A stretch of DNA of 64,000 nucleotides from an uncultured Solirubrobacteraceae bacterium (GTDB taxonomy: Bacteria > Actinomycetota > Thermoleophilia > Solirubrobacterales > Solirubrobacteraceae): the NCBI GenBank assembly GCA_963811895.1, contig CAWETE010000001.1:76160-140159 (forward strand), written 5' to 3'. This document shows positions 19,802 to 51,007 of this stretch, in pieces (the first letter of the stretch is position 1; every line of letters starts with the position of its first letter). A program made the translations under genes and the position numbers. The notes beneath the pieces are model-generated. The model did not search any database. It worked only from the letters and a program-made list of their open reading frames with translations, and was not told where the DNA came from.

Positions 19802-22800
19802 CTAGCTGAACGGGCCGGCCCGGCGACCCCGCGGCGGCGGCGAGATCGGCGAGTTGGCCTTGATGTGGTCGATCAGCACGTCGAGCAGCAGGTCGCCGGT
19901 CTGCAGCACGTTCGTGCCACCCGAGAGCGCCGTGTAGCCGTCGCCACCGCCGAACATGAAGTCGTTGGTGACGAGGCGGACGGTGCTGCCCGGGCCGAGC
20001 GGCGCGGTCGTCGGCCGCGGGCCCGGCGGCGCGAGCCACACGTTGTCGATCGCCGGCACGGTGCCGTTGCAGTGGAACTCGACCCACAGGCCCGAGTACT
20101 GCGGCGTGCGGCCGGTGCCACCGGAGGAGTCACCGCACGGCGGGCGGAAGCCGTTCGCCAGCGCGGCCACGAGCTGCTCGTAGGTGACCGTCTCGATCAC
20201 GGTCGCGTTGCCGAACGGCAGCACCGCGAACGCCTCGCCCCAGGTGATCTCACCCACGGCCTCGCCGCCCGCGACTCGCGTGCGGATGAAGTCCTCACGC
20301 AGGCCGCCGGAGTTCGTGATCGCGGCCTGCACGCCGTCGTCGGCGTACTTCGCCCGCATCGCGTCGGCCACCACGTTGCCCATGTCCGACTCACGCAGGC
20401 GCGCCGGGTTGTCGCGCAGGATGTCCACGCTCGAGCTGCCGATGACGACGTTGCGCAGCGGCGCGGTGTCGGCGTTGGCCTTGTCGACGATCGCCTTGAC
20501 ATCGGCGCGAGGCGTCACGCCGAGGTTCTTGGCCGTGCGTGTCGCGCCGCCGATCCAGGCCACGTCGTCGCCGCGGACCATCAGCTGCGCCACCGAGTAG
20601 CTGATCCCGGCGTTGAAGCCCTCGACGATCGGGATCCGCCCGACGACCGTGTTCGCCGCCCGGTGGGTGTGGCCGGCGATCACGAGGTCGACCGTGGTGT
20701 TCTGGAGCTTGTCGACGATTCCGATGATCGGGCCGCTCCACGGCGCGGACGCGTTGCCGTCGACGCGGTTGGCGCCGGCGACCGCCCCCTCGTGGATGAC
20801 CACGACCTGGATCTTCACGCCCCAGCGACGGAGCCTGCGCGAGGCGCGCTCGATCCGCTCGGCCTCGTCGAGGAACGCCAGGCCCGCCGTGTTGCCGGGC
20901 TTGACCAGCTCCGGCGTGTTGCGAACGACCGAGCCGATGACCCCGACTCGCATGCCGTTGACGCGGAACACCTTCGTGGTCCGCATCCAGTCGGGCGCGC
21001 GGCCGGTGGCCGTCTCGACGACGTTGGTGGCCAGGAACGGGAAGTTCGCCCGGTCCTGGTGGAGCAGGATCCGCTCGATCCCGAAGTCGAACTCGTGGTT
21101 GCCGAAGCTCGTGGCGTCGAGCCCCCACGCGTTCTCCACGTCGATCGTCGGGATGTCCTGCAGCAGCGCCGAGCTCGGAGGCGAGGCGCCGACGTTGTCG
21201 CCCGCGGCCAGCAGCAGCGTCCTGCCGGGCAGGGCGTCGGCCTCCTCGTCGAACATCGTCGCGAGCTGCCCGGCGCCGCCCATGCTGTTGGCGATGCCGT
21301 TGTCACCGGCCTGCGTCGACGGGTCGAGCTGACCGTGGAAGTCGTTCAGCCCGACGATCGAGATCGGCCGGTACTGGTTGCCGTCCTCGAGCAGGTCGCG
21401 CCGCACGACGCCCTGGCTGCGCTCCGGCACCGGGACGTCGAGCAGGAACGCCGCGGTCGGCGCCAGGTCGATGCTGCGGACGTCGTGGACGACGCCGCGG
21501 TCGATCGCCTTGCCGCCGGCCAGGAACGTGGCCCGCATGTTGGTGTTGGTGTCGAGGTCCTGCACGTCCGGCACGTAGCCGTGCTGGCCGAAGAACGCCG
21601 AGCGCGCGAACAGCGTGCCGGGCGTCGCCGCGTCGTACTGGTACGGCGGGTTGGCGAAGACGACCAGGTCGCCCGTCCGGGTCGGGTGCGACATGTCGGC
21701 GGTGCTGTCGTCGCCGTTCGGGATGTAGCGCGCCTCGGCCTTCGTGTAGATCCGGTCGATCACGTCCCAGCCCTCGGGCTGGCCGTCGCCGGTCCAGTCG
21801 TTGGGGTCCTCGAGCGCCTCGAACGCGGCCTTGATCCGGGCCACCTCCGTGGCCACGTTGGCGGCCGGGATCTGCTGGTAGCCGGCGGCGTTGTCCCGAC
21901 CGACCACGTTGAGGTAGATCTGCAGCGCGCCGCCGGCGTAGCAGGCCTTCGCCTTGCCGATCGTCTCACCGCTCGCCACGCTCTGCGGGCGGCAGTTGGA
22001 GGTCTGCGGCCGCGCGAGCAGGCCGAGGTCGACGAGCACCTTGCTGGCGTCGATGGCCAGGAACTGCGGCGCGAAGCCGTGGTCGGAGGAGACGAACGTC
22101 GTCAGGTCCTTGTCCTTCAGGCGGTCCTGCGCCAGGCGCATCGTCGCGTCGGAGCCCTGGTACGCGCGGCGGATGAACGCCTCGCGCTGCTTGACGCGGC
22201 CGTCCGGCGTGCCGTTGGACTGGACGTCGTCGTAAGCGGGGTTCTTGGCCCCGTTCGGCAGCCGCTTGGTGACGAGCCCGAGGAACTGGTGCTGGACCTC
22301 GTCGGTCACCGGGTAGCCGACCATCGCCAGGTCCGGCTTGTACCTGTCGAGGATGTACCTGATCAGCGGGTGGTGGCCGGTCTCCCAGTACAGGCCCTGC
22401 TCGATGTAGGTCTCCTCGCTCACGATGCCGGCCTCGAGGACGGCGAAGTCGCCGGCCTGCGAGGACGGGAAGCGCTCGGCGACGAAGTCCTCGAAGTCGC
22501 CGGTGAAGCCCGGCTCGCCCGGCCACGTCGGCCAGGTCGCGTTCGAGCGCGTCACCGACGTGTGGAAGAGCCGGACCTGCGAGAGGTCGGAGGCCAGCCG
22601 CTCGACCTTGACCAGGAAGGCGCCGGTCTTGCCATTGAACGCGTTGGTGGTCTGGAGCTTGACCTTGACGTCGGCCCACTCGCCTTCCTTGAGGTCGCCG
22701 ACCTTGTCGTTGCCGTTCTTGGTCGGCGAGAACAGGACGCGGTCGTAGCGGACGCGGCCGTCGCTCTTGCTGTCGTAGATGTAGGCGTTGAGGCCGTACT

Positions 22801-23605
22801 TGTCGACCCAGCTCGGATTCACGCCGTCCAGCACGCGCAGGCGCATCTGCTTGGCGACGCCGTTGCGCGAGGGCGGCACGTTGGTCCAGCCGGTCGCGTC
22901 GGTCGGGGCGGCATCCGCGAACGGGGGCCGGCCGGCAAACCCGGCCGGATGGTCGAACTGGAGGCCGAACGACGCCGTGAACGCCGCGTCGTCGAGCGGG
23001 GAGATGTAGTTCGTCGCCACGCCGCGGCCCGAGAAGAAGTTGCGGAAGTCGACCGTCGGGCCGTCGATGGCCCCGCCGCGGCCGCCGGCCCACTCGATCT
23101 GGGCGACCTTCTTGCCGCCGCGCTCGGCCGACTGCGCGAGCGTCTCGGCCTGCAGCACGCCGGCGTCGAACGCCGCGGTGCGGCCGGGATGGGTCGCGGT
23201 CTGGCCGAACGGGTCGCCGTTCTTGTGGAAGGTGTTGTTGGTCGAGCCGTGGACGCCCGGCCACGCGCCGGTGGCGAGCGTGAACCAGCCGGCGCCCGTA
23301 TTCGGCGGCGCCTGCGTCAACAGGCCGTGGTCGGAGGCCCGCGCGCCGTGCTTGAGCAGCTCGCGGAAGCCGGGTGTCACGCCCTGGTCGGCGTACTTCT
23401 CGACCGACTGCTGCATCAGGCCGTCGGAGGCGAAGAACAGGAACTTGTCCTTGCCTCTGTCGTCTGAATGACCCCAACCGTGCGGCTGGGCGGTCTCCGC
23501 GCTGACCCACGGGACGAGGCCGATGGCCATCACCGCCGCCGCCAGTAGCCCGATCAAGCGCATCCGGCGCCCGCCGATGGTCGCTGCCAACACGTCCTTG
23601 CTCAT
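19802..23605 (-). CDS. Secreted 1267-aa fusion: N-terminal alkaline-phosphatase/phosphodiesterase-superfamily domain plus C-terminal bifunctional metallophosphatase/5'-nucleotidase (UshA-like)
   Basis: ATG at 23605 with ggagggg RBS. Signal peptide ...[26 protein letters not shown]-terminal half has [17 protein letters not shown] and the 5'-nucleotidase C-domain. Confidence 0.75.
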
Positions 23606-23748
23606 TCGCTAGCCCCTCCGTTCGCGGCCGGTGGGACGCCACCCCGTTCGTCTGCCGGCCATGCTCTCTCCGAAACGCATGAGGGCGCTCTCGCGCCCCG
23701 TTATGGCGACGCTACCACGGTTGAATCGGCGAATGTGAACGCCGTGGT

Positions 23749-25146
23749 TTAAGGCGTCGGCGTCGGGGTCGGCTCGGGCGTCGGCTCGGGAGTGGGCTCC
23801 GGAGTCGGCTCCGGGGTGGGCTCGGGCGTCGGGGTGGGCGCGGGCGTCGGCTCGGGCGTGGGCTCCGGCGGTGGCGGCGGGCGACGGCGCCGGCGCCGAA
23901 CGTCGTCGGTGGCGGCCTCCGGCGGCGCGGCCGCCGCGGGTGGCGCCTGCCGGCGGCGGACGACCGCTCGCCGCCGGATGTGACGGCGCACGCGCCGCGG
24001 CGACACGCCATGCCGCCGGGCCACGCGCTGGATGCGGCGCGCCCGGCGCCGGCCCGCCAGCGCGCGCTCGCCGGTGCGCACGGGCGGCAGCTCGGCCGCC
24101 GGCGCCGTGGTGTCCTCGGGCGGCGGGGCGGCGTCGCGGCGCCGTTCATGCCGGCCGGCGGCGCGCTGCTCGACGGGCTCGGGAGTCGGGTCGGCGGCCA
24201 CCAGCCGGACGGGCGCCGCCGCGGGGCGCACCACCGGCGCCGGGGCCGTCTTCGCAGGTTCGCGCTGGGTCACCGCGTCGACGGTCGCCACGCCGCCCGT
24301 CACGCCCGTGCCGGCGACGGCGGCCACGATCGCCGCCTTCGCGGCCAGCCCGGCGGCGCCGCCGCCCGCGACGGCGGCGCCCGCCGCGACGGCGGCGCCG
24401 CCGCCGGAGCCGCCGAGCACGGCGGCCTTCAGCCCCACGCTCGGCGCCACCGGCAGGATGAGCGCCAGCCGCGTGCGCTGACCCGCGACGGCCAGGCGGA
24501 ACTCGGTGCACGGCTCGCAGTGGCGGAGATGGCGCCGCAGCGGCGCGCGCCGCAGCGCGCCCGCGCGGCCGACCGCGAGCTGGCCGCGGATGTCCTCGCA
24601 CGGGGTCTCGCGGGCCTCGCGCTCGGCGATCAGCGCCGAGCGGGCCTGGAAGACGAGCGCCTTGACCTTCTCCGGCGCGCAGCCGATGACCCCCGCGATC
24701 TCGCGGTGGCTGAGGTCGCCCATCTCGAAGAGGACGAGCGCGCCGCGCTGGTCCTCGGGCAGTCCCGCGAGGTCGGCGACCAGCTCGCGCAGGTCGGCGC
24801 GGCGCACGACCTCGTCGGCGAGCCCGTCGAGCGCCGGCTCGAGCTCGTCGACGGGCACGGCGGCGTCGCGGCGCGCGGCCAGCAGCGTGCGGCAGCGGTT
24901 GCGGGCGATGGCGAACAGCCATGGCCGCAGGGTGTCGGGCACGCGGCCGGCGAGGAGGGCGCGGTGGGCGCGCAGGAAGGTCTGCTGGAGGGCGTCCTCA
25001 CCGTCCTCGCGGTTGCCGACCATGTGGCGGCAGAACGCGAGCAGCGGCGCGTGGTGACGGTCGTAGAGCGCCGCGAAGGCGCTCTCATCGCCGCGAGCCA
25101 CGAGTGTCGCCAGACGCTCGTCGTCGAGTTTCCCAAAGAACTTCAA
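23749..25146 (-). CDS. ECF (sigma-70 family) sigma factor fused to a zinc-finger (zf-HC2, HxxxCxxC) anti-sigma-like domain, Gly/Ala-rich TM segment and a Pro-rich tail ending in (PEPT)n repeats
   Basis: Sigma region 2 (LVARGDESAFAALYDRHHAPLLAFCRHMVGNREDGEDALQQTFLRAH) and region 4 (LPEDQRGALVLFEMGDLSHREIAGVIGCAPEKVKALVFQARSAL). Then ETPCEDIRG...LRRHLRHCEPC, then a 40-aa G/A hydrophobic stretch, then PEPTPEPTPAPTPTPEPTPEPTPEPTPEPTPEPTPTPTP*. Start is uncertain: TTG 25146 is used here, TTG 25191 and ATG 25224 are alternatives. Confidence 0.65.
   Translation of the reverse strand: MKFFGKLDDERLATLVARGDESAFAALYDRHHAPLLAFCRHMVGNREDGEDALQQTFLRAHRALLAGRVPDTLRPWLFAIARNRCRTLLAARRDAAVPVDELEPALDGLADEVVRRADLRELVADLAGLPEDQRGALVLFEMGDLSHREIAGVIGCAPEKVKALVFQARSALIAEREARETPCEDIRGQLAVGRAGALRRAPLRRHLRHCEPCTEFRLAVAGQRTRLALILPVAPSVGLKAAVLGGSGGGAAVAAGAAVAGGGAAGLAAKAAIVAAVAGTGVTGGVATVDAVTQREPAKTAPAPVVRPAAAPVRLVAADPTPEPVEQRAAGRHERRRDAAPPPEDTTAPAAELPPVRTGERALAGRRRARRIQRVARRHGVSPRRVRRHIRRRAVVRRRQAPPAAAAPPEAATDDVRRRRRRPPPPPEPTPEPTPAPTPTPEPTPEPTPEPTPEPTPEPTPTPTP
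23752..23880. repeat. Tandem 12-nt DNA repeats (ggctcgggcgtc-like) encoding the (PEPT)n tail of the sigma/anti-sigma fusion
   Basis: About 10 consecutive near-identical 12-mers on the plus strand, which is antisense to the CDS. Confidence 0.7.
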
Positions 25147-25222
25147 CGCACTGGTGACGCCTGCTCGCGGCCGCGTATTCCATGTGACCAACCTCCGCGG
25201 CCGGCGGCGGGTCTCCCATCGC

Positions 25223-26203
25223 ATGACTGCACGCATCGCACGCACCCTCGCCGTCGCCGCGCTCGCGGTGGCCGCGCTCCTCACCATCCCGCGCGCCGCG
25301 CCCGCCCAGGCCTGCGACACGCAGGGCCCGGCCGGGACCGGCTACGCGGCCGGCGTCAACTGCCGGACCGCCGAGCTCGACGGCGTCGACCGCCACTATC
25401 TCGTCTACGTCCCGCGCGACCGGCCCGCGCGCCCGCCCGTGGTGTTCATGTTCCACGGCTCCTCCGGCACCGGCCAGCAGTTCCTGAACATCTCCGGCTG
25501 GCGCGAGCAGGCCGATCGCGAGGGGCTGATCGCCGTCTTCCCGACCGGGCTGCGCTATCGCGTGCTCGATTCCGGCCGGCGCGTCACGAAGTGGAACGAC
25601 TACAGCCTGGCCGGGGAGGTCGACCTGAGCGAGCTGCCGCCCGGCTACCCGGAGGGCTCGCCGATGCCCGCGAACGACGTCGGCTTCGTCGACCTGATGA
25701 TGCAGGACCTCGGGGCCGGGCTGCCGATCGACCGCCGGCGCGTGTACATGAGCGGCTTCTCGAACGGCGCCACCTTCGCCGCCCGCGTGGCCGCCGACCG
25801 CTCGGAGCACGTGGCGGCGGCCGCGTACTCCGGCGGCGGCCTGACCGAGGTGCGACCGAGGTCCGTCCCGACCTACGTGACCGTCGGGACGGAGGACGCG
25901 AAGATCCTCGATGGCACGGGCCTGACGGAGCTGCCGCTCGACCCGGTGGACATCCTGACCTCGCCGGTCGTCCGCCCGTTCATCGACCTCCACCTGCAGA
26001 CGCTCGGGCTCGACCCCGATCTGTTCGGCGCCGTCGCCGAGCCGCGCACGACGAACCTGCGCTGGCCCGCCGTCAATCCCGTGCTGCGCTTCGGGATGCT
26101 CGGCGGGCTGGGCCACAAGTGGCCGGACGAGTTGGTGCCCGAGTTCTGGCAGTTCTTCCGCGATCACTCGGGCGGGACGGGCCCGAGCATGACGCGGAGG
26201 TAG
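25223..26203 (+). CDS. Secreted esterase of the PHB-depolymerase / LpqC-like alpha/beta-hydrolase family
   Basis: ATG at 25223. Signal peptide MTARIARTLAVAALAVAALLTIPRAAPAQA. Motifs HGSSGTG, VYMSGFSNGATFAARVAAD (GxSxG). Divergent to the sigma fusion gene. Confidence 0.7.
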   Translation: MTARIARTLAVAALAVAALLTIPRAAPAQACDTQGPAGTGYAAGVNCRTAELDGVDRHYLVYVPRDRPARPPVVFMFHGSSGTGQQFLNISGWREQADREGLIAVFPTGLRYRVLDSGRRVTKWNDYSLAGEVDLSELPPGYPEGSPMPANDVGFVDLMMQDLGAGLPIDRRRVYMSGFSNGATFAARVAADRSEHVAAAAYSGGGLTEVRPRSVPTYVTVGTEDAKILDGTGLTELPLDPVDILTSPVVRPFIDLHLQTLGLDPDLFGAVAEPRTTNLRWPAVNPVLRFGMLGGLGHKWPDELVPEFWQFFRDHSGGTGPSMTRR

Positions 26204-36486: not shown

Positions 36487-36907
36487 TCGCCCACGAGCCG
36501 ATCGCCAGCGCCGCGATGCCCGCCGCCGCCCGCGCGCGGCCGATCTGGCGCGGCGGCCGCAGCGGCCACAGCAGCGGCGTCGGCGCCGCGTCGTCGCTCG
36601 CGTCGCGCAGCAGGTGCGACGTGAGGCCCGCGAACCCCGCCCAGCCGTGCACCGGCCCGCCGGCCGCCGTCCCCAGTGCGGCGGCCGCGAGCGTCGCGAG
36701 CAGCGTGTGGCTGCGCGGCCGCGTGCGCAGGCCGAGCATCGCGCTCGGCCGCGCCGAGCGCGCGGCGACCGCGTGGTCGACGTCGATCAGCGTGCCTGCC
36801 ACGACCGCGGTCACCATCGGCCGGCGCCCGAGCGGCGCCACGACCGCGGCGGCCAGCAGCGCGTGGGCGAACGGGTCGGCGCCCGCGACGAGGTGGCGCC
36901 GGTTCAC
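36425..36907 (-). CDS. Membrane-bound metal-dependent hydrolase, YdjM/DUF457 family
   Basis: GTG at 36907 overlaps the ROK gene stop (GTGA). Motifs GTLIDVDH, RSHTLLATLA and GLTSHLLRDASDDAAPTPLLWPL mirror E. coli YdjM PDIDH / FTHSLL / SHILADMLTPAGVPLLWP. Confidence 0.6.
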   Translation of the reverse strand: MNRRHLVAGADPFAHALLAAAVVAPLGRRPMVTAVVAGTLIDVDHAVAARSARPSAMLGLRTRPRSHTLLATLAAAALGTAAGGPVHGWAGFAGLTSHLLRDASDDAAPTPLLWPLRPPRQIGRARAAAGIAALAIGSWAIRAAGAGGPTSAGAAGDGGA

Positions 36908-37876
36908 GCGGGCGCGGGCGCGCCGCTGACCAGGAGCGAGGCGCCGATCGCCCCGCCGAGGTCGCCGAGCGCCGCCAGCTCGACGGCCGGCGGGTGGTCG
37001 TCGGCGAACAGGTGCGGCATCATCGCCTCGCGGATCCGCTCCACATAGGGCTCGCCGAGCCGCAGGCCGAGGCCGCCGCCGATGATGATCGCCTCGACGT
37101 CGAGCACGTTCTGGCACGAGGCCACGCCGGCGCCGAGCGCGCGCACGGCGCGTTCGAGCAGGCTGCGGGCCAGCGGGTCGCCCTTGTCGAGCGCGCGCGC
37201 CCACACGCCGCTGGACAGCCGCGTGCGCCCGCGCTCCTCCATGATCTTGAAGAGGAGGGTCTTCTCGCCGCGGTTGGCGCGCCGGCGCGCGCGGGCCTCC
37301 ATCGAGGCGCGCCCGGCGTAGGCCTCCATGCAGCCGCGGCGGCCGCAGCCGCACAGGGCGCCGCCGATGCGGACCACCACGTGGCCGATCTCGCCGGCCA
37401 CGTCGCGGCCGATCCACGGCTTGCCGTCGAGCACGATCCCGCCGCCCACGCCGGTGCCCCAGAACACGCCGAGCAGCGAGCTGTAGGGGCGGCCGGAGCC
37501 GAGTGCGAACTCCGCGTCGGTCGCCACCTGGACGTCATTGCCGAGCCGCACCGCAGCGCCGCAGGACTTCTCGAGCGACTTGCGCATGTTGAACGAGCCG
37601 CCCCAGCCGGGCAGGTTCATGGCCGCCGACACCGTGCCGGCCGTCGTCGTCCACGTTGCCCGGCGAGCCGATGCCGATGCCCTCGAGCGACGAGGTCTCG
37701 AGGCCCGCCTCGGCGGCGGCCTCCTGCAGCGCGCCGGCGATCTCGGCCGCTACGCCGGCCGGACTGCCGGTCGTCGGCGTGGGCCGACGTGACTGGCCGG
37801 CGACTTCGCCGCGCTCGTCGACGACGACCGTCTGGATCTTGGTGCCTCCGAGATCGACTCCCCCGGTGTATCCCAT
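36904..37876 (-). CDS. ROK-family sugar kinase (glucokinase-like); one frame change near 37635
   Basis: ATG 37876 (MGYTGGVDLGGTKIQTVVVDERGEV...GIGIGSPGNVDDDG). Then the frame of ORF 36904..37632 continues ...TVSAAMNLPGWGG...GHVVVRIGGALCGCGRRGCMEAYAG (ROK Zn motif). Confidence 0.65.
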
Positions 37877-37997
37877 GCCGTAGGTGTACCCGACAGGAAC
37901 GTGTCCTGCGTGACAGGTTCCATTCGAAGGGGAATCTCGGTGACGGTCATGGCGAGCATCCTGTTCCCAAGGACGCCCGCCATGACCGCCGTATTCC

Positions 37998-39329
37998 CTA
38001 GCGCTTGAGCTTGAGCGACAGGGTCGTGCTCTTCGAGCCCAGCGAGACCTTGACGCGGAGCTTGACGCTGCGGGCGTTGTCGAGCGCGTTGCGGGCGCCG
38101 CGCGTGAAGCGCAGCTTGACCGTCGCCTTGCCGGCCTTGACACGCTTGCTGCCCGAGGCGACCTTGAGGCCGCGGTCGGTGGCCGTGGCCTTCACGCGGC
38201 CGGCGGACGGCGCCGTGACCTTGACCGCGAAGCCCTTGCGCAGCGCCGTCGCCAGCTTGGTCTTGACGGCCTTCGCCTTCAGGCCGCCGCCGGAGGGGCC
38301 GCGGCCGGCGGGCACGGCGGCGGGGCCCCAGTCGGGCTGCGAGCCGCCGGGGATGACGAGCGGAGCGTTCGGCGTCGCGCCGTCGAGCGTGCAGCCGCCG
38401 GCGAAGCTCGGCACGGTGACGACCTTGATGCCGTCGTCCTCGGCCCACGCGAGCCGCCCGCCGTCGGGGGCGAAGGTGGGGGTCGAGTAGTGCCCGTTGG
38501 GGCCGCTGTAGCGGTAGCAGATGCTCGGGCGGGTGGAGACCGGCGCCTCGCTGTCCTTGAAGGTGGTCGGGAACTGGGGGACCGAGTACACGGTGAGCGT
38601 GCTGTCGTTCTCACCCGTGGCGAACGCCATCTTCGCGCGGTCGCGCGTGATGTCGCCGCCGCTCGTGTGCGGGTTGCCCTCGACCATGTCGCTGAACCAG
38701 TTGTGGACGAGGTTGCCGGAGTCGCCGTCGCTCAGCGTGTCGAGGATCACGTCGGCATTCGGCATGTGCGTGGGGTCGCTGAGCATCGTCGTGTCCTCGT
38801 CGACCCACACCGGGTTGCGCCAGCCGGTGTGCTTGCCGAGAGCGGGGTCGTCCCAGCCGGTCTGGCGGTCGGCCCACGAGTAGCCGGTGCCGCCCTCGTT
38901 GATCCCGACGAAGCAGGTCGGCGGGAAGCAGGTCGGGCTCTGGCTCTGGGTCATGTAGTGGAACGTGTAGGCGACCTTCGTGCCGTCCGGCGAGATGGCC
39001 GGGTCGAAGGGGCCGTAGAAGGTCTTGGCGGGAGCCGGCCGCGTGTCGCTGACCGGGGTGTCGAAGTCGGCCAGCACGTTGCCCTGGCGGTCGAGCCGGT
39101 GCAGGCGCACGCCGGTGAGGGCGATCATCGTGCCGTCGTCGGCCTGCGAGACGTCGGCGTAGCGGCCGCTGGTGGTCACGCGGTACTGGCGCGAGCCGTC
39201 GCCGGTCGACAGCCAGACGTCGCCGCCCTTGATGTAGGCGATCGAGTCGGCCATGGCGGCCGGCGCGGCGATCACCAGCACGAGCAGCGCGCCGCACACC
39301 GCGAGGAGTCGGGAGAGGGGGGAGGACAT
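37998..39329 (-). CDS. Secreted hypothetical protein, probable beta-propeller (PD40/TolB-like) with Lys-rich C-terminal tail
   Basis: ATG 39329 with gggggagg RBS. Signal peptide MSSPLSRLLAVCGALLVLVIAAPAAMA. 443 aa. C-terminus KAKAVKTKLATALRKGFAVKV...LKLKR. Confidence 0.65.
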   Translation of the reverse strand: MSSPLSRLLAVCGALLVLVIAAPAAMADSIAYIKGGDVWLSTGDGSRQYRVTTSGRYADVSQADDGTMIALTGVRLHRLDRQGNVLADFDTPVSDTRPAPAKTFYGPFDPAISPDGTKVAYTFHYMTQSQSPTCFPPTCFVGINEGGTGYSWADRQTGWDDPALGKHTGWRNPVWVDEDTTMLSDPTHMPNADVILDTLSDGDSGNLVHNWFSDMVEGNPHTSGGDITRDRAKMAFATGENDSTLTVYSVPQFPTTFKDSEAPVSTRPSICYRYSGPNGHYSTPTFAPDGGRLAWAEDDGIKVVTVPSFAGGCTLDGATPNAPLVIPGGSQPDWGPAAVPAGRGPSGGGLKAKAVKTKLATALRKGFAVKVTAPSAGRVKATATDRGLKVASGSKRVKAGKATVKLRFTRGARNALDNARSVKLRVKVSLGSKSTTLSLKLKR

Positions 39330-47922: not shown

Positions 47923-47992
47923 GCCGAGCAAGCTCCCAGCGGCCTCCCCCCGCAACCACGGGGGGACCCCCTGAACCAACCCCCTCAACCCC

Positions 47993-48089
47993 AAGGGGGG
48001 TCTGACCCCCCTTGCTCTGTCGCGCGGCACGCGAACGGCTCTACAGCGCGGTTTCGGCCTCGGCGATTAAGGGGGGTCTGACCCCCCTT
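47993..48089. repeat. Two identical 21-nt G6/C6 perfect hairpins (aaggggggtctgaccccccctt-type; 47993-48013 and 48069-48089) 76 nt apart, plus G/C-run-rich spacer, between the LAL regulator 3' end and the ECF sigma start
   Basis: Each is a 9-10-bp perfect stem with a 1-3-nt loop. A third, imperfect G6-a-C5 motif sits at ~47960-47975. The region contains no ORF. Confidence 0.6.
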
Positions 48090-48095
48090 GGGGTG

Positions 48096-51007
48096 CTAGT
48101 GGGCCGCTCGGGTGCGGCCGACGGCCTGGGCGACCTCGGCGCGGGAGGTGACGCCGAGCTTGGCGAAGATGCGCGTGAGGTGGCCCTCGACGGTCTTCTC
48201 GGAGAGGAAGAGCTCGGCGCCGATCTCGCGGTTGGTGCGGCCCTCGGCGACCAGCTCGGCGATCTCGCGCTCGCGGCCGGAGAGGGCGTCGAGGCCTTCG
48301 CCGCTGGCGCGGCGCTGGCGGGCGGAGACGCGCTCGCCGAGCCGGCGCAGCTCGCGCGCGGCCTCGTCGCGGTAGCGGGCGGCGCCGAGCTGGGACAGCT
48401 CGGACTCGGCGCGGGTGAGCTCGGCCACGCCCTCGTCGCGCCGCCCGGCCGCGGCCAGCGCCATGCCGGCGAGCGTCCGGCAGCGCGCGGCGGCCAGCGG
48501 GACGTCGACCGACTCGGCGCGCTCGGCGCCTTCGAGCGCCAGCGTCGCGGCGGCCTCCGCGTCACCGGCCTCGAGCACGACCGCGGCGCGCGCGTGCAGC
48601 ACCCACGCCTCGGCCAGCGGCAGCCCGAGCCCGCCGACGATCTGCTCGCCGCGCTCCGCCCACCGCACGGCCGCGTCGCGGTCGCCGCGAGCGAGCTCGG
48701 CACGCGCCAGCGCCGCGTACATCCACGCGCGCCGGCCCGGCTCGATCGAGGGGAGGTCCGGCAGGCCGACGGCGCGCACGGCGGCCAGGCAGCGGTCGAC
48801 CTCGCCGAGGTCGGCCCACAGCACGCCCAGGTGCGCGTGCGTGCCGCGCGTGAGCACGCTGTCGTCGAGCCCTTCGAGCAGGGCCACCGCCTCGTCGCCC
48901 GCGGCGCGCGCCCGGTCGACGTCGCCGAGATCGGCCACCGTCCACGCGTTGGCGACCAGCGCGAACACGACCAGCTGCCGGTTGCCGGCCAGCCGCGCGG
49001 CCTCGACCGCGCCGTCGGCGGTCTCCGCCGCCTCGGCGAGGAACCCGCGCGTCTGCAGCGCATGCGCGAGCCCGATCATCATCGGGACCACGAACTGGCC
49101 CTGGCCGATCGCGCGCGAGACGTTGATACCGCGCCGCAGGTGGCGGATCGCGTCGTCGTAGTGCTCGCAGAAGAACTCCGCGAAGCCGAAGTAGTACGGC
49201 GCGTCGAGCCGCAGCATGAGCTGGTCGTCGGGCAGCGCGTCGAGGAGCGCCGCGCACTGCACGCGGGCGGCCTCCGCGGCCTCAGGGTCGCCCCGGTTGT
49301 ACTCGGCGAAGCACAGCAGCGCCGTGGCCAGCGCCTCGAGCCCGCGGTCGCCGAGCCGCCGCGCCGTCTCGGCCGCGCGCGTCGCCCACTGACGCATCGC
49401 CTCGAAGTCGCTGTCGTAGAGCGCGTCGGCGGCCAGCTCGGCGTGCAGGGCGGCGGCCGCCGCGCCGTCCTGGTCGTCGAGCGCCTGCAGCGCGTCGAGC
49501 AGCCGCGCATGAGCCGCGTCGTGGCGGCCGAGCAGGTTCTCGCACGCCGCGCACGCGGCGATCAGGCGCACGCGCAGGTCGGGCAGCTCCACCAGCGCCA
49601 GCGCCTCGACGAGCGCCTCCAGCGCGCGCTCGAGCCGCCCGGTGGCGGCCAGCGCGCCCGCCAGCGGGACGAGCAGCCCGAGCCGGCGCACCGGGTCGAC
49701 CGCCGCCGGCTCGGGCGGAGGCGGCACAGGGCCGGCCGAGTCGCCGCCCAGCAGGCGCAGCGCCGCCTCGAACCAGCGGGCGGCTATCGCCGGCGCGCGG
49801 GCGGCGGCCTGGTGGCCGGCCTGCTCGAGCACCGCGGCGGCCGCCTCGTCGCCGATCTTCGCCGAGCGCTCGACGTGGTGCGCGCGCGCCGCCAGCGCAC
49901 CCGGCCGGTCGGTCAGCGCGGCCGCGGCGCGGGCGTGCGCCTCCAGCCTCCACGCCTCGCCGGCGCCGTCGTACACCGCGCGGCGCACGAGCGGGTGGCG
50001 GAAGCGATAGCGGCGCGCAACGTCGGTCGGCCCGGCGATGTGTGCGGCCAGCAGCTGGTCGAGCGCGGCCAGCGTCTCGCGCTCGTCCATGCCGGCGGCG
50101 GCGCCCGCGAGGTCGAGGTCGAACGGCTCGCCCGCCACCGCGGCGCCCCAGCCGAGCCGCCGGGCCGGCTCCGGCAGGCCGGCGATCTCCTGGCCGAGCG
50201 CGGCCGCCACGGCCGGCGGCACGCCCACGTGCTCGCCTCCGTGCCGGGCTCGGCGGCGGCCGGCGCGGGCGCCCGCGCCAGCTCCTCGAGGTAGAACGGG
50301 TTGCCGCCGCTCTGGCGGTAGATCGCCGGCAGCGCCGGGGCGCCGAGCAGCACGCCGGCCTCGGCCTCGGTGAGCGGTCCGAGCCCGATCTCGCTCACGA
50401 GCCCGTCGCGGGCGGCCTGGTCGAGCGCGGCCAGCAGGCTGTTGGGCACCTGCCCGGCGCGGAAGGCGAGCGCGATCAGCACGGGCGCCGGCGGCGGGCG
50501 CCGCAGGAGGTGGGCGATCAGCTCGAGCGAAGCATCGTCGGCCCAGTGCACGTCATCGAGCATCAGCACGACGGGATGGCCCATCGCCAGCCGCTGCAGC
50601 AGCGCGCGGACCGCGCGGTAGGCGTGGAAGCGCTCGTCCTGCAGGCCGCCCGCGCTCGCCCCCGAGCCGGCCGACGGCAGCACGCGCGCGAGCTCGGCCA
50701 CGCGCTCGCCGATCAGCGCCTCCAGCTTGCGCTCGCCGAGCGTGCCCACGTGGTCGTCGAGCGCGTCGATCCAGATCCCGAACGGCACTTCGAGCTCCAG
50801 CTCCGCGCCACGGCCCACGAACACGGCGTGCCGGCGCTCGGCGGCGCGCTCGGCGAGCTGGCCGAGCAGCCGCGTCTTGCCGATCCCGGGCTCGCCGCTG
50901 ATCACCAGGAAGCGGGCGCGCGCACCGCGCAGGCCGTCCAACGTGGCATCGATCGCCGCCAGCTCCTGGCGGCGCCCGACGAACTGCTTCTGCTGCGCCA
51001 GCGTCAC
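48096..51007 (-). CDS. LuxR-family large ATP-binding (LAL / STAND-type) transcriptional regulator: N-terminal AAA/P-loop NTPase, central TPR-like helical repeats, C-terminal LuxR HTH; one frame change near 50240
   Basis: GTG 51007. Walker [12 protein letters not shown] and Walker [13 protein letters not shown] in ORF 49913..51007. After ...[12 protein letters not shown] the frame switches to ORF 48096..50228 (...[23 protein letters not shown]...). C-terminal [42 protein letters not shown]. Confidence 0.7.

Follow-up and report, generated by a model that had tools for sequence, protein, structure and literature searches.

Does the long minus-strand reading frame that ends at position 23749 of the window (the whole 64,000-nucleotide stretch of DNA analysed here) encode an ECF sigma factor fused in a single polypeptide to its own anti-sigma domain and membrane anchor, and which promoters would such a factor serve? 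The sigma/zinc-finger fusion gene is a real gene, of an architecture already known from other Actinobacteria, and what is new at this locus are two conserved ECF-type promoters, predicted from sequence, in the 76-bp region between it and a divergent esterase gene. We consider it reasonably probable that the product is a membrane-tethered, self-inhibited ECF sigma factor of the ECF48/52/53 architectural kind, with the esterase gene as its direct target. In the mechanism that we propose, the ZAS-like domain would turn back on the sigma part and insert between its regions 2 and 4, and would keep the membrane-bound factor inactive, N-terminus inside and tail outside. A signal sensed by the tail or by the zinc-thiolate site could then free the sigma part; by analogy with ECF48/52/53 and IutY, this may happen through regulated proteolysis in the membrane helix or close to it. 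The freed sigma part would transcribe from CCAACC-N15/16-GGGTC promoters, its local target being the divergent, leaderless secreted-esterase gene, and the sigma gene would itself be read from a different, leaderless ECF-type promoter, GGAATA-N16-CGTC.

The reading frame is uninterrupted, and its GC3 is 0.87-1.00 across the coding region, tail included. An earlier note on this DNA, made from the letters alone, had placed the gene at 23749-25320; its 3' end stands, whereas its start must be moved. As judged from sequence comparison, the gene almost certainly starts at the TTG codon at 25146 rather than at the GTG at 25320, and thus spans 23749..25146 on the minus strand (465 codons, giving a protein of 465 aa; stop codon at 23749-23751), because a frame opened at the GTG would run into the esterase gene, because the N-termini of close homologues read MKFFGKLDD, and because a conserved promoter lies exactly 9 nt 5' of the TTG codon in 9 ortholog loci. 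For annotation, the lesson is that the longest-ORF start is incorrect for this gene. The sigma core comprises only region 2 (24868..25068, minus strand; residues about 27-93) and region 4 (24631..24771, minus strand; residues about 126-172), both of which match curated HMMs, as in ECF (group 4) sigma-70 factors. Scores above the respective cut-offs were obtained with Pfam Sigma70_r2 (PF04542, 41 bits) and Sigma70_r4_2 (PF08281, 46.3 bits), and with NCBIfam TIGR02937 (sigma70-ECF, 65.4 bits vs a cut-off of 42.9), which bears out the earlier assignment of both regions, and the fold matches of this part are to SigE, AlgU and SigW. The helices of regions 4.2 and 2.4 are nearly invariant in the family comparison, including the region 4 recognition helix EKVKALVFQAR.

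The divergent gene (25223..26203, plus strand) is the predicted target and encodes a secreted alpha/beta hydrolase of the PHB-depolymerase/feruloyl-esterase kind, with a signal peptide ending in PAQA before a C. Its scores remain under the cut-offs of NCBIfam e_dPHAscl_type1 (NF050058, 84.5 bits vs 150), Pfam Esterase_PHB (PF10503, 22.2 vs 23) and TIGR01840 (36.9 vs 107.85), and its nearest solved structure is the feruloyl esterase 9j07 in the PDB (E 2.4e-8); by sequence, it appears to be an alpha/beta hydrolase related to the PHB-depolymerase family but below the family thresholds. The two start codons, described earlier as less than 80 bp apart, are separated by 76 bp. Within this interval, motif A (CCAACCTCCGCGGCCGGCGGCGGGTC; 25188..25213, plus strand; CCAACC-N15-GGGTC) lies 9 nt 5' of the esterase ATG, and motif B (GGAATACGCGGCCGCGAGCAGGCGTC; 25156..25181, minus strand; GGAATA-N16-CGTC) lies 9 nt 5' of the sigma start, so that the proposed search for ECF-type promoters upstream of both genes yielded a conserved predicted motif for each. 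Motif A is found ahead of the esterase gene in 12 of 14 sequences, irrespective of gene arrangement. In 17 of 81 loci an A-like motif also stands ahead of a sigma paralogue, where about 0.65 would be expected; together with the near-invariant helices of regions 4.2 and 2.4, this favours motif A as the promoter that the family itself uses. Among the best 80 of 333 relatives, 13 loci have the esterase and sigma genes as neighbours, whether divergent, in tandem or arranged in some other way. The esterase gene is most likely, on this comparative evidence, switched on by the neighbouring fused sigma, and its earlier designation as a plausible target is strengthened, since the genes stay linked through rearrangements in these loci and a conserved ECF-type promoter lies ahead of the esterase.

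The usual argument from autoregulation gives no direct link between this sigma factor and motif A, because the sigma gene of this ortholog group is preceded by motif B and not by motif A. A doubtful alternative, though one that deserves weight, is that this sigma factor recognises motif B in classical ECF autoregulation and that a paralogous fused sigma serves motif A at the esterase. It draws on the distribution of strict motif B, which occurs 14 times in about 2.0 Mb, in 10 cases upstream of sigma orthologs, and is thus almost confined to such positions in this ortholog group, on the constant 9 nt between B and the in-frame TTG or ATG in 9 loci, and on the several paralogues in each genome. 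Set against these points are the 4.2 and 2.4 recognition helices, which are nearly identical to those of paralogues bearing an upstream motif A, and the linkage of the esterase to this ortholog group rather than to the paralogues, with motif A present in every arrangement. Elsewhere in the window, a second motif-A match at 47976-48002 sits in a duplicated palindrome with no plus-strand gene after it, and was rejected as a promoter. A scan of 23500-25500 for sigma-70-type promoters found none, an Rfam search of the entire window gave no matches, and RNA folding of the sigma/phosphodiesterase intergenic region gave a structure no better than shuffles (z = -1.1).

How the factor would be held at the membrane depends on what follows the Cys/His segment. 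The earlier description of a Gly/Ala hydrophobic stretch after the zinc-finger motif, followed by a Pro/Arg-rich region, agrees with the composition. A Gly/Ala linker (24349..24408, minus strand; residues 247-266; 45% A, 40% G, net charge 0), which varies from 0 to 75 residues among relatives and is without charge in them whatever its length, leads into a single predicted transmembrane helix (24277..24348, minus strand; residues 267-290; core AAIVAAVAGTGVTGGVATV), assigned by hydropathy, where the Kyte-Doolittle 19-mer maximum is 1.72 (family median 1.85). In most family members the hydrophobic core is flanked by a Lys on its N-terminal side and by an acidic or polar residue on its C-terminal side. 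The remaining 175 aa form a low-complexity, Pro/Arg-rich tail (25% Pro), made up of a Pro/Ala-rich spacer defined by composition and matching no Pfam domain (24112..24276, minus strand; residues 291-345), an Arg-rich segment (23887..24111, minus strand; residues 346-420; 32% Arg, net charge +19) that includes ARRHGVSPRRVRRHIRRR, and a poly-Pro run with about ten PEPT-like tetrapeptides (23752..23886, minus strand; 53% Pro, 24% Thr). Motifs related to ARRHGVSPRRVRRHIRRR recur as repeats in orthologs, PT-rich C-terminal ends are common to most of them, and a relative with 74% identity (P0003) keeps both the frame and the motif of the Arg segment. No Pfam or NCBIfam domain was found after residue about 180, the matches at E<=10 being chance-level ones to HTH and PARP families; those of HTH_Tnp_1 and HTH_23 in the Arg block (E about 0.1) were likewise taken as chance. 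The net charge of the tail is +15, against a family median of +19. A positive charge is unusual for an exported segment and counts against a model with the tail outside.

A second hydropathy peak, LALILPVAPSVGLKAAVLG (1.82), leaves room for a two-segment topology with a cytoplasmic tail. It is rather unlikely, in our estimate, that LALILPVAPSxGLKAAVLGG and the later helix both lie in the membrane as a hairpin; in that case the Gly/Ala linker would be an outside loop and the polycationic tail would be cytoplasmic, an arrangement that we find equally hard to favour, and it is with the same reserve that such a tail can be imagined, e.g., to bind nucleic acid or other polyanions or to act as a degron. 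This topology would account for the two hydropathy peaks of 1.82 and 1.72, for a linker that is chargeless at any length and for the strong positive charge of the tail in 68 of 76 relatives, as the positive-inside rule would have it, and one or two TM helices are reported for ECF48/52/53 proteins (PMC8999054). In the first segment, however, two Pro residues are invariant and the hydrophobic run is only 13 residues long before a near-invariant Lys, and in the AlphaFold model the segment is broken between the last part of helix 3 and a short helix 4 of its own, which is the layout of an anti-sigma domain. Moreover, the Lys usual before the second core and the acidic residue usual after it fit an N-in/C-out orientation, and TonB, with a charged, Pro-rich spacer that is exported, provides a precedent for such tails outside.

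The PEPT tail itself consists of 7 exact and about 4 degenerate units, and the earlier estimate of about ten units holds, whereas the description of its DNA as perfect 12-nt repeats does not: TRF reports a period of 12 with 9.7 copies, 75% matches and 13% indels, and identity between copies is 63-86%. Nor does the suggestion of a slippage-prone tract of variable length survive, as the repeats are codon-scrambled at the DNA level and the unit count is equal in four strains that are 96-99% identical (the window, L001, L081 and L082), so that the proposed comparison of copy number revealed no difference and length variation of the PEPT tract between these strains is ruled out. The sole clean difference between their tails is a 6-bp Pro-Pro indel in L001. 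In two relatives with frameshifts (P0001 and P0002), the indels are scattered and 1-2 nt long, as is typical of long-read assembly noise, and frameshifted "variants" of this kind in MAGs built from long reads should not be taken for phase variation.

The candidate ZAS-like anti-sigma domain (24409..24606, minus strand; residues 181-246) begins about 10 residues after sigma region 4, with no intervening stop. The HxxxCxxC motif and the ETPCE upstream of it, pointed out in the earlier note, can be read directly in the translation in the same frame as the sigma regions, as HLRHCEPC with the Cys of ETPCE 22 residues ahead of the His. The zinc-ligand candidates are Cys183 (24598-24600, minus strand) and His206-x3-Cys210-x2-Cys213 (24508-24531, minus strand), and their spacing, C183-x22-H206-x3-C210-x2-C213, is that of ZAS domains, in which a Cys/His ligand lies about 22-27 residues before HxxxCxxC. 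All four are invariant in the family alignment (A1) and occur in 79 of 80 genomic loci; the first Cys is replaced by His in one relative, and a conserved LPVxPxxGLK motif comes after HxxxCxxC. AlphaFold places four helices here (183-192, 201-209, 211-230 and 237-246; pLDDT 81-95 up to residue 230). The isolated segment scores 14.1 bits (E 0.054) with Pfam zf-HC2 (PF13490), below the gathering threshold of 22.2, which is reached in none of the 36 family members examined; zf-HC2 is nonetheless the commonest weak Pfam match in the family (E<1 for 29 of 36 members, with 0.0021 the lowest value), and it and RskA_N are the only recurring ones. The earlier identification as zf-HC2 thus stands as a weak but family-wide HMM similarity and falls short as a Pfam assignment, and it follows for annotation that Pfam misses the zinc-finger domain of the entire family. 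A profile of the segment searched against the PDB aligned with RsiW on the motif (E 0.76) as its sole relevant match, and an AlphaFold model of the isolated segment (pLDDT 64.9) gave no Foldseek matches in the PDB. With zf-HC2 below threshold, it is the motif spacing, the invariance and the four-helix layout that lead us to see in this segment a putative, divergent class-I zinc-binding anti-sigma domain.

It would alter the mechanism if the Cys/His segment were instead an activating, metal- or redox-sensing C-terminal extension required for activity, as in CorE-type (ECF238) factors. We judge this very unlikely: fused Cys-rich activators are on record (PMC8999054) and neither HMM nor fold searches match the segment significantly to solved anti-sigma domains, but its ligand spacing and helix positions fit a ZAS domain and not the short (about 20-aa) CorE extension (PMC7826278), a linker and a membrane helix come next, as in membrane anti-sigma factors, and no Pfam families other than zf-HC2 and RskA_N recur among its weak matches.

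The inhibitory reading also presupposes that the two parts belong to one protein, and the earlier claim of a single polypeptide joining sigma factor, zinc-finger motif, anchor and Pro-rich tail is upheld by the relatives, in which HxxxCxxC follows the sigma part in 119 of 120 homologues and the fusion is present in 79 of 80 genomic loci (the best 80 of 333 relatives in GTDB species genomes). These homologues and loci all fall in Solirubrobacterales, the 80 being labelled as that order, Thermoleophilaceae, Conexibacter, or unclassified Actinomycetota/Actinomycetes, several fused-sigma paralogues occur per genome, and the fusion is found also in isolate genomes (Solirubrobacter soli DSM 22325 and Conexibacter sp. 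DBS9H8). Searching with the ZAS segment returned 543 cluster representatives at E<=1e-10. Nine short matches among the best 150 are, by their sequences, truncated gene calls and not stand-alone anti-sigma proteins, because each begins inside region 4.2; stand-alone homologues are excluded among these nine. The comparison supports the fusion as a conserved family trait rather than a frameshift artefact. That separate sigma and anti-sigma genes were merged by an indel in a long-read assembly is hardly credible, for although 1-2-nt indels do occur in related assemblies, those observed sit in the tail, away from the junction, which is in frame in these proteins and loci from many projects, isolates included. 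Region 4 and the first Cys are only about 10 residues apart, and this interval has neither a start codon nor an RBS.

With at least 543 sequence clusters, the family invites a broader and, in our view, unlikely reading, namely an expansion in Solirubrobacterales of single-chain sensors with many inputs and one promoter class, in which a disordered, wall-embedded tail would serve as sensor or protease bait. If so, the same recognition helices and the CCAACC-N15/16-GGGTC promoter class would be kept by all, while the extracytoplasmic tails, devoid of folded domains, would be free to diverge (Arg-repeat plus PEPT, Lys/Pro-rich, or Gly/Ser/Pro/Gln-rich). Wall polyanions could be ligands of the polycationic block, the PT-rich rod could carry O-linked glycans, like the yeast wall-stress sensors Wsc1/Mid2, and the network would govern secreted hydrolases such as this esterase. 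The locus is a compact case, i.e. a 465-aa protein without a sensor domain, a predicted cognate promoter and a conserved single-gene target 76 bp away, accompanied by a large natural series of relatives with differing tails, and the promoter pair and leaderless geometry lend themselves directly to reporter assays and to transcription in vitro.

To our knowledge, the fused sigma/anti-sigma class has hardly been studied, with only IutY and, in part, SCO4117 examined experimentally, and we know of no experimentally characterised member of ECF48 or ECF53. The earlier label "ECF52-type" appears too specific, by comparison with published groups, because ECF48 and ECF53 have been described with the same zinc-finger and TM layout, i.e. 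a C-terminal zinc-finger (probably ZAS) fusion with one or two TM helices and an extension that can reach 400 residues (PMC8999054); the present protein matches their architecture as given in that published description. Like ECF52, represented by SCO4117 of Streptomyces coelicolor, it has a sigma core, HxxxCxxC, membrane helix(es) and a long Pro-rich extension, the zinc finger being recognised here at motif level only, and it shares the actinobacterial restriction (among the best 80 of 333 relatives) and the proposed inhibition by the fused domain with release by proteolysis (PMC5826349, PMC8999054). Such release has been proposed for ECF48/52/53 (PMC8999054), and a truncated form of SCO4117 keeps activity (PMC5826349). 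A carbohydrate-binding module in the extension is a feature of ECF52 (PMC5826349), whereas here no such module or other globular domain follows the membrane helix and the tail is purely low-complexity (Arg block and PEPT). Unlike SCO4117, which is reported to match pfam13490 and has a proposed promoter of CSGYN-N17-SRHA, the present protein has a zinc finger below the Pfam threshold, a predicted promoter of CCAACC-N15/16-GGGTC and a host from Thermoleophilia (Solirubrobacterales) rather than Streptomyces.

With the two-gene systems RsiW/SigW, RslA/SigL and RsdA/SigD it shares a Cys/His-x(22-27)-His-x3-Cys-x2-Cys pattern carried by a bundle of helices, with a linker and one TM helix after it, and its sigma model resembles the conformer of SigW that is bound to RsiW. 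Whereas RsiW, RslA and RsdA are encoded by separate +1 genes, the domain here is covalently joined to sigma region 4, and its sequence similarity to RsiW is marginal, at the E of 0.76 given above. IutY of Pseudomonas putida (ECF243) likewise combines sigma, anti-sigma and TM parts in one polypeptide, but its anti-sigma part is FecR-type, has no zinc motif and responds to a TonB-dependent receptor of the Gram-negative cell envelope; it is related to the present protein only in the sigma core. A truncated form of IutY is constitutively active and activation proceeds by regulated intramembrane proteolysis (PMC8999054), and IutY is the best-studied example of how a sigma/anti-sigma fusion works.

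The minus-strand open frame ending at 23749 keeps a third-position GC of 0.87-1.00 from ~25100 to 23752, low-complexity tail included, and encodes an ECF sigma factor followed by a Cys/His segment, a predicted membrane helix and a Pro/Arg-rich tail. We place its start at TTG 25146 (465 aa), replacing the most upstream GTG (25320) that the earlier note had chosen, from which the ORF would overlap the divergent esterase gene by ~100 nt. MKFFGKLDD is the N-terminus of two homologues at 98% identity (P0001 and P0002), the locus L001 (~97% DNA identity) carries an in-frame 30-nt insertion directly 3' of the TTG codon, and a conserved promoter-like motif ends exactly 9 nt before an in-frame TTG or ATG in 9 ortholog loci. 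Pfam recognized Sigma70_r2 (41 bits) and Sigma70_r4_2 (46.3 bits), and NCBIfam TIGR02937 (sigma70-ECF) gave 65.4 (cut-off 42.9). Equivalog models all stayed below their cut-offs, with SigM best at 90 vs 190, and the closest solved sequences are E. coli sigma-E and AlgU. About 10 residues past region 4 begins TPCEDIRGQLAVGRAGALRRAPLRRHLRHCEPC, which reads Cys183-x22-His206-x3-Cys210-x2-Cys213, followed by the motif LPVAPSVGLKAAVLGG, an uncharged 20-residue Gly/Ala linker, the hydrophobic stretch AAIVAAVAGTGVTGGVATV (Kyte-Doolittle 1.72) and a 175-residue C-terminal tail (25% Pro, 19% Arg, net charge +15), which opens with a Pro/Ala spacer, continues with an Arg-rich block (32% Arg, +19) and closes with PPPPP and ~11 PEPT-like units.

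On the sequence comparisons, the single-chain fusion of sigma and Cys/His segment is real, as first proposed. Among the 120 top-scoring database homologues, 119 have HxxxCxxC at equal distance behind sigma, and the motif is in frame with sigma at 79 of the best 80 loci, drawn from 333 relatives found by scanning one genome per GTDB species and including the isolate genomes of Solirubrobacter soli DSM 22325 and Conexibacter sp. DBS9H8. As a lone query, the Cys/His segment matched 1115 cluster representatives at E<=1e-3 (543 at E<=1e-10); the nine apparently short matches that were read all begin within region 4.2 (MFQAR..., VKVKALVFQAR...); they are truncated gene calls, and none of them is a stand-alone anti-sigma protein. 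In P0003 (74% identity), both the Arg motif (ARRLGVSPRRLRR) and the PEPT end are read in the frame used by the window. The contigs of P0001 and P0002 (L081 and L082) differ from the window and L001 by scattered indels of 1-2 nt that frameshift the encoded tails, a hallmark of long-read assembly noise. In these near-identical ENA assemblies, insertions of 1-2 nt in GC-rich runs shift the sigma-tail frame, and in L082 such insertions break neighbouring genes too; the resulting protein "variants" are not to be taken as biological.

The PEPT tract had been described as perfect 12-nt repeats, potentially variable in length, and neither description was supported. TRF reported 9.7 copies of a 12-nt period at 75% matches with 13% indels, and copies in register are 63-86% identical; the tract is thus imperfect, a repeat maintained at the protein level by scrambled codons. 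The number of units is equal in four strains (the window, L001, L081 and L082), the sole clean length difference being two extra Pro codons in L001. The architecture given in the earlier note was largely right, the exceptions being the repeats, the start codon and how strongly zf-HC2 matches.

Evidence that the Cys/His segment is an anti-sigma domain is indirect but consistent. The four candidate ligands (Cys183, His206, Cys210 and Cys213) are invariant in the alignment, with His replacing the first Cys in one relative, a variation known among zinc-binding anti-sigma (ZAS) proteins. AlphaFold, with 68 sequences, predicted four helices (183-192, 201-209, 211-230 and 237-246), in which Cys183 and Cys213 open helices 1 and 3, His206 belongs to helix 2 and Cys210 sits where helices 2 and 3 meet, the ligand and helix layout of solved ZAS domains (RsiW, RslA and ChrR). 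Confidence for residues 181-230 was 81-95 when modelled together with sigma and averaged 65 for the segment modelled alone, a drop which suggests that the model's signal comes from packing against sigma. The commonest weak Pfam match was zf-HC2 (29 of 36 members, best E 0.0021), with RskA_N second. Against the anti-sigma reading, zf-HC2 was absent from the whole-protein Pfam scan, the excised segment scored 14.1 bits vs a cut-off of 22.2, and no curated threshold was reached by the segment, family members tested included. A PDB profile search with the segment found RsiW at no better than E 0.76, and a structural neighbour search with the isolated model returned nothing.

Median hydropathy of the best hydrophobic 19-mer past the motif is 1.85 across 76 relatives, usually with Lys before the 19-mer and Asp/Glu/Gln/His after it, and the preceding Gly/Ala linker (0-75 residues) is uncharged, a pattern that fits one predicted N-in/C-out membrane helix. 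As a caveat, the tails are net positive in 68 of the 76 relatives (median +19), and a second hydrophobic peak over LALILPVAPSVGLKAAVLG (hydropathy 1.82) would also permit a hairpin of two membrane segments with a cytoplasmic tail. We favour the single helix because that stretch contains two invariant Pro and a near-invariant Lys, and because AlphaFold divides it between the end of helix 3 and a separate helix 4, the arrangement of an anti-sigma domain. At the S. soli DSM 22325 locus (L026, 6700 to contig end) the Gly/Ala linker continues for over 200 residues (GAAAGGG...) until the contig stops, an extreme of length variation in this segment.

The divergent plus-strand gene (25223-26203) encodes an alpha/beta hydrolase bearing a signal peptide, which scores near but under the PHB-depolymerase and esterase model thresholds and has a feruloyl esterase as its closest solved relative. 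At 13 of the 80 best loci, the closest relatives, an ortholog of it adjoins sigma, placed divergently upstream, in tandem downstream, or otherwise. Each of the two genes is preceded by a promoter-like motif of ECF type. Motif A, CCAACC-N15/16-GGGTC(T) (25188-25213, plus strand), ends 9 nt before the esterase ATG and precedes the esterase start in 12 of 14 sequences, window included. The L055 esterase has no motif A of its own, but one lies upstream of the secreted-protein ORF preceding it, so operon-type transcription from there may drive the gene. Where the esterase is downstream of sigma (L005 7634-7660, L006 7625-7651), motif A falls within the final codons of sigma, and promoter sequence dictates the residues at that C-terminus (...QPGRRPAGLIRRQAINP). 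Strict motif A is rare (41 occurrences in 1.9 Mb), with most sites upstream of esterase genes, sigma paralogues and adjacent signal-peptide or membrane-protein genes; 17 of 81 loci, vs ~0.65 expected, have an A-like form ahead of their own sigma gene, and the -35/-10 recognition helices (EKVKALVFQAR; RPWLFAIARNRC) are nearly invariant family-wide. From this rarity, location, excess and invariance, we take motif A as the family's predicted cognate promoter and the esterase as a predicted direct target of this sigma, which strengthens, at the level of sequence, the earlier suggestion of the esterase as target; this concrete promoter and target prediction is new here. In other clades, motif A stands ahead of other sigma-adjoining genes (L018 7429, L021 7340, L025 7429; L011, L013, L015), one set encoding small secreted proteins with Gly/Asp-rich repeats (...GTPTADTIFGKSGDD...) and another a conserved membrane protein (...FFLVDAVQLL...); these differing genes suggest clade-specific single-gene regulons.

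Motif B, GGAATA-N16-CGTC (25156-25181, minus strand), lies upstream of the sigma gene in this ortholog group; 10 of the 14 strict occurrences in ~2.0 Mb precede these sigma orthologs, and the distance from motif end to start codon is always 9 nt. Motifs A and B have in common AA(C/T)-N18-GTC, an ECF promoter geometry, and both genes look leaderless. Either the fused sigma or another sigma may read motif B. A second exact match (GGAATACGGCGGTCATGGCGGGCGTC; 37972-37997, minus strand) is found ~95 nt ahead of a gene for a ROK-family kinase (36904-38143), and a 1-nt indel has probably split this gene into its two overlapping ORFs, 37535..38143 and 36904..37632; a looser pattern is expected by chance 1.6 times per window, and the match may be coincidence.

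On the same strand, 143 nt downstream of the sigma gene, lies a gene (19802-23605, minus) for a 1267-aa phosphodiesterase-type protein with Phosphodiest, Metallophos and 5_nucleotid_C domains and an N-terminal hydrophobic signal-like segment, kept at this position in the closest relatives only (L001, L081 and L082); the intervening region had no Rfam match and no unusual fold. Elsewhere there are two copies of a 17-nt palindrome, GGGGGGTCTGACCCCCC, spaced by 76 nt (47995-48011 and 48071-48087; 0 expected) and flanked by an unfused conventional ECF sigma gene (47377-~47900, minus) and a MalT/LuxR-type regulator gene (48096-50228, minus). A motif-A match at its first copy was rejected as spurious, being produced by the palindrome.

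The protein is an ordinary, though poorly studied, regulator type in a Solirubrobacteraceae genome. In Actinobacteria, ECF48, ECF52 and ECF53 combine an ECF sigma with a zinc-finger domain and 1-2 TM helices, with proteolysis as their expected mode of activation (PMC8999054). A further defining mark of ECF52 is a Pro-rich extension bearing a carbohydrate-binding module; in SCO4117, its one studied member, the sigma domain stays functional if expressed without the zinc finger, the membrane region and that module (PMC5826349). A Pro-rich extension is present in our protein too, but Pfam scans found no carbohydrate-binding or other folded module in it. The earlier interpretation is right in kind, but the label ECF52 is not established, and one defining feature is absent. 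Among functional analogues, the best understood is IutY, a FecI/FecR-type fusion that Prc and RseP release (PMC8999054).
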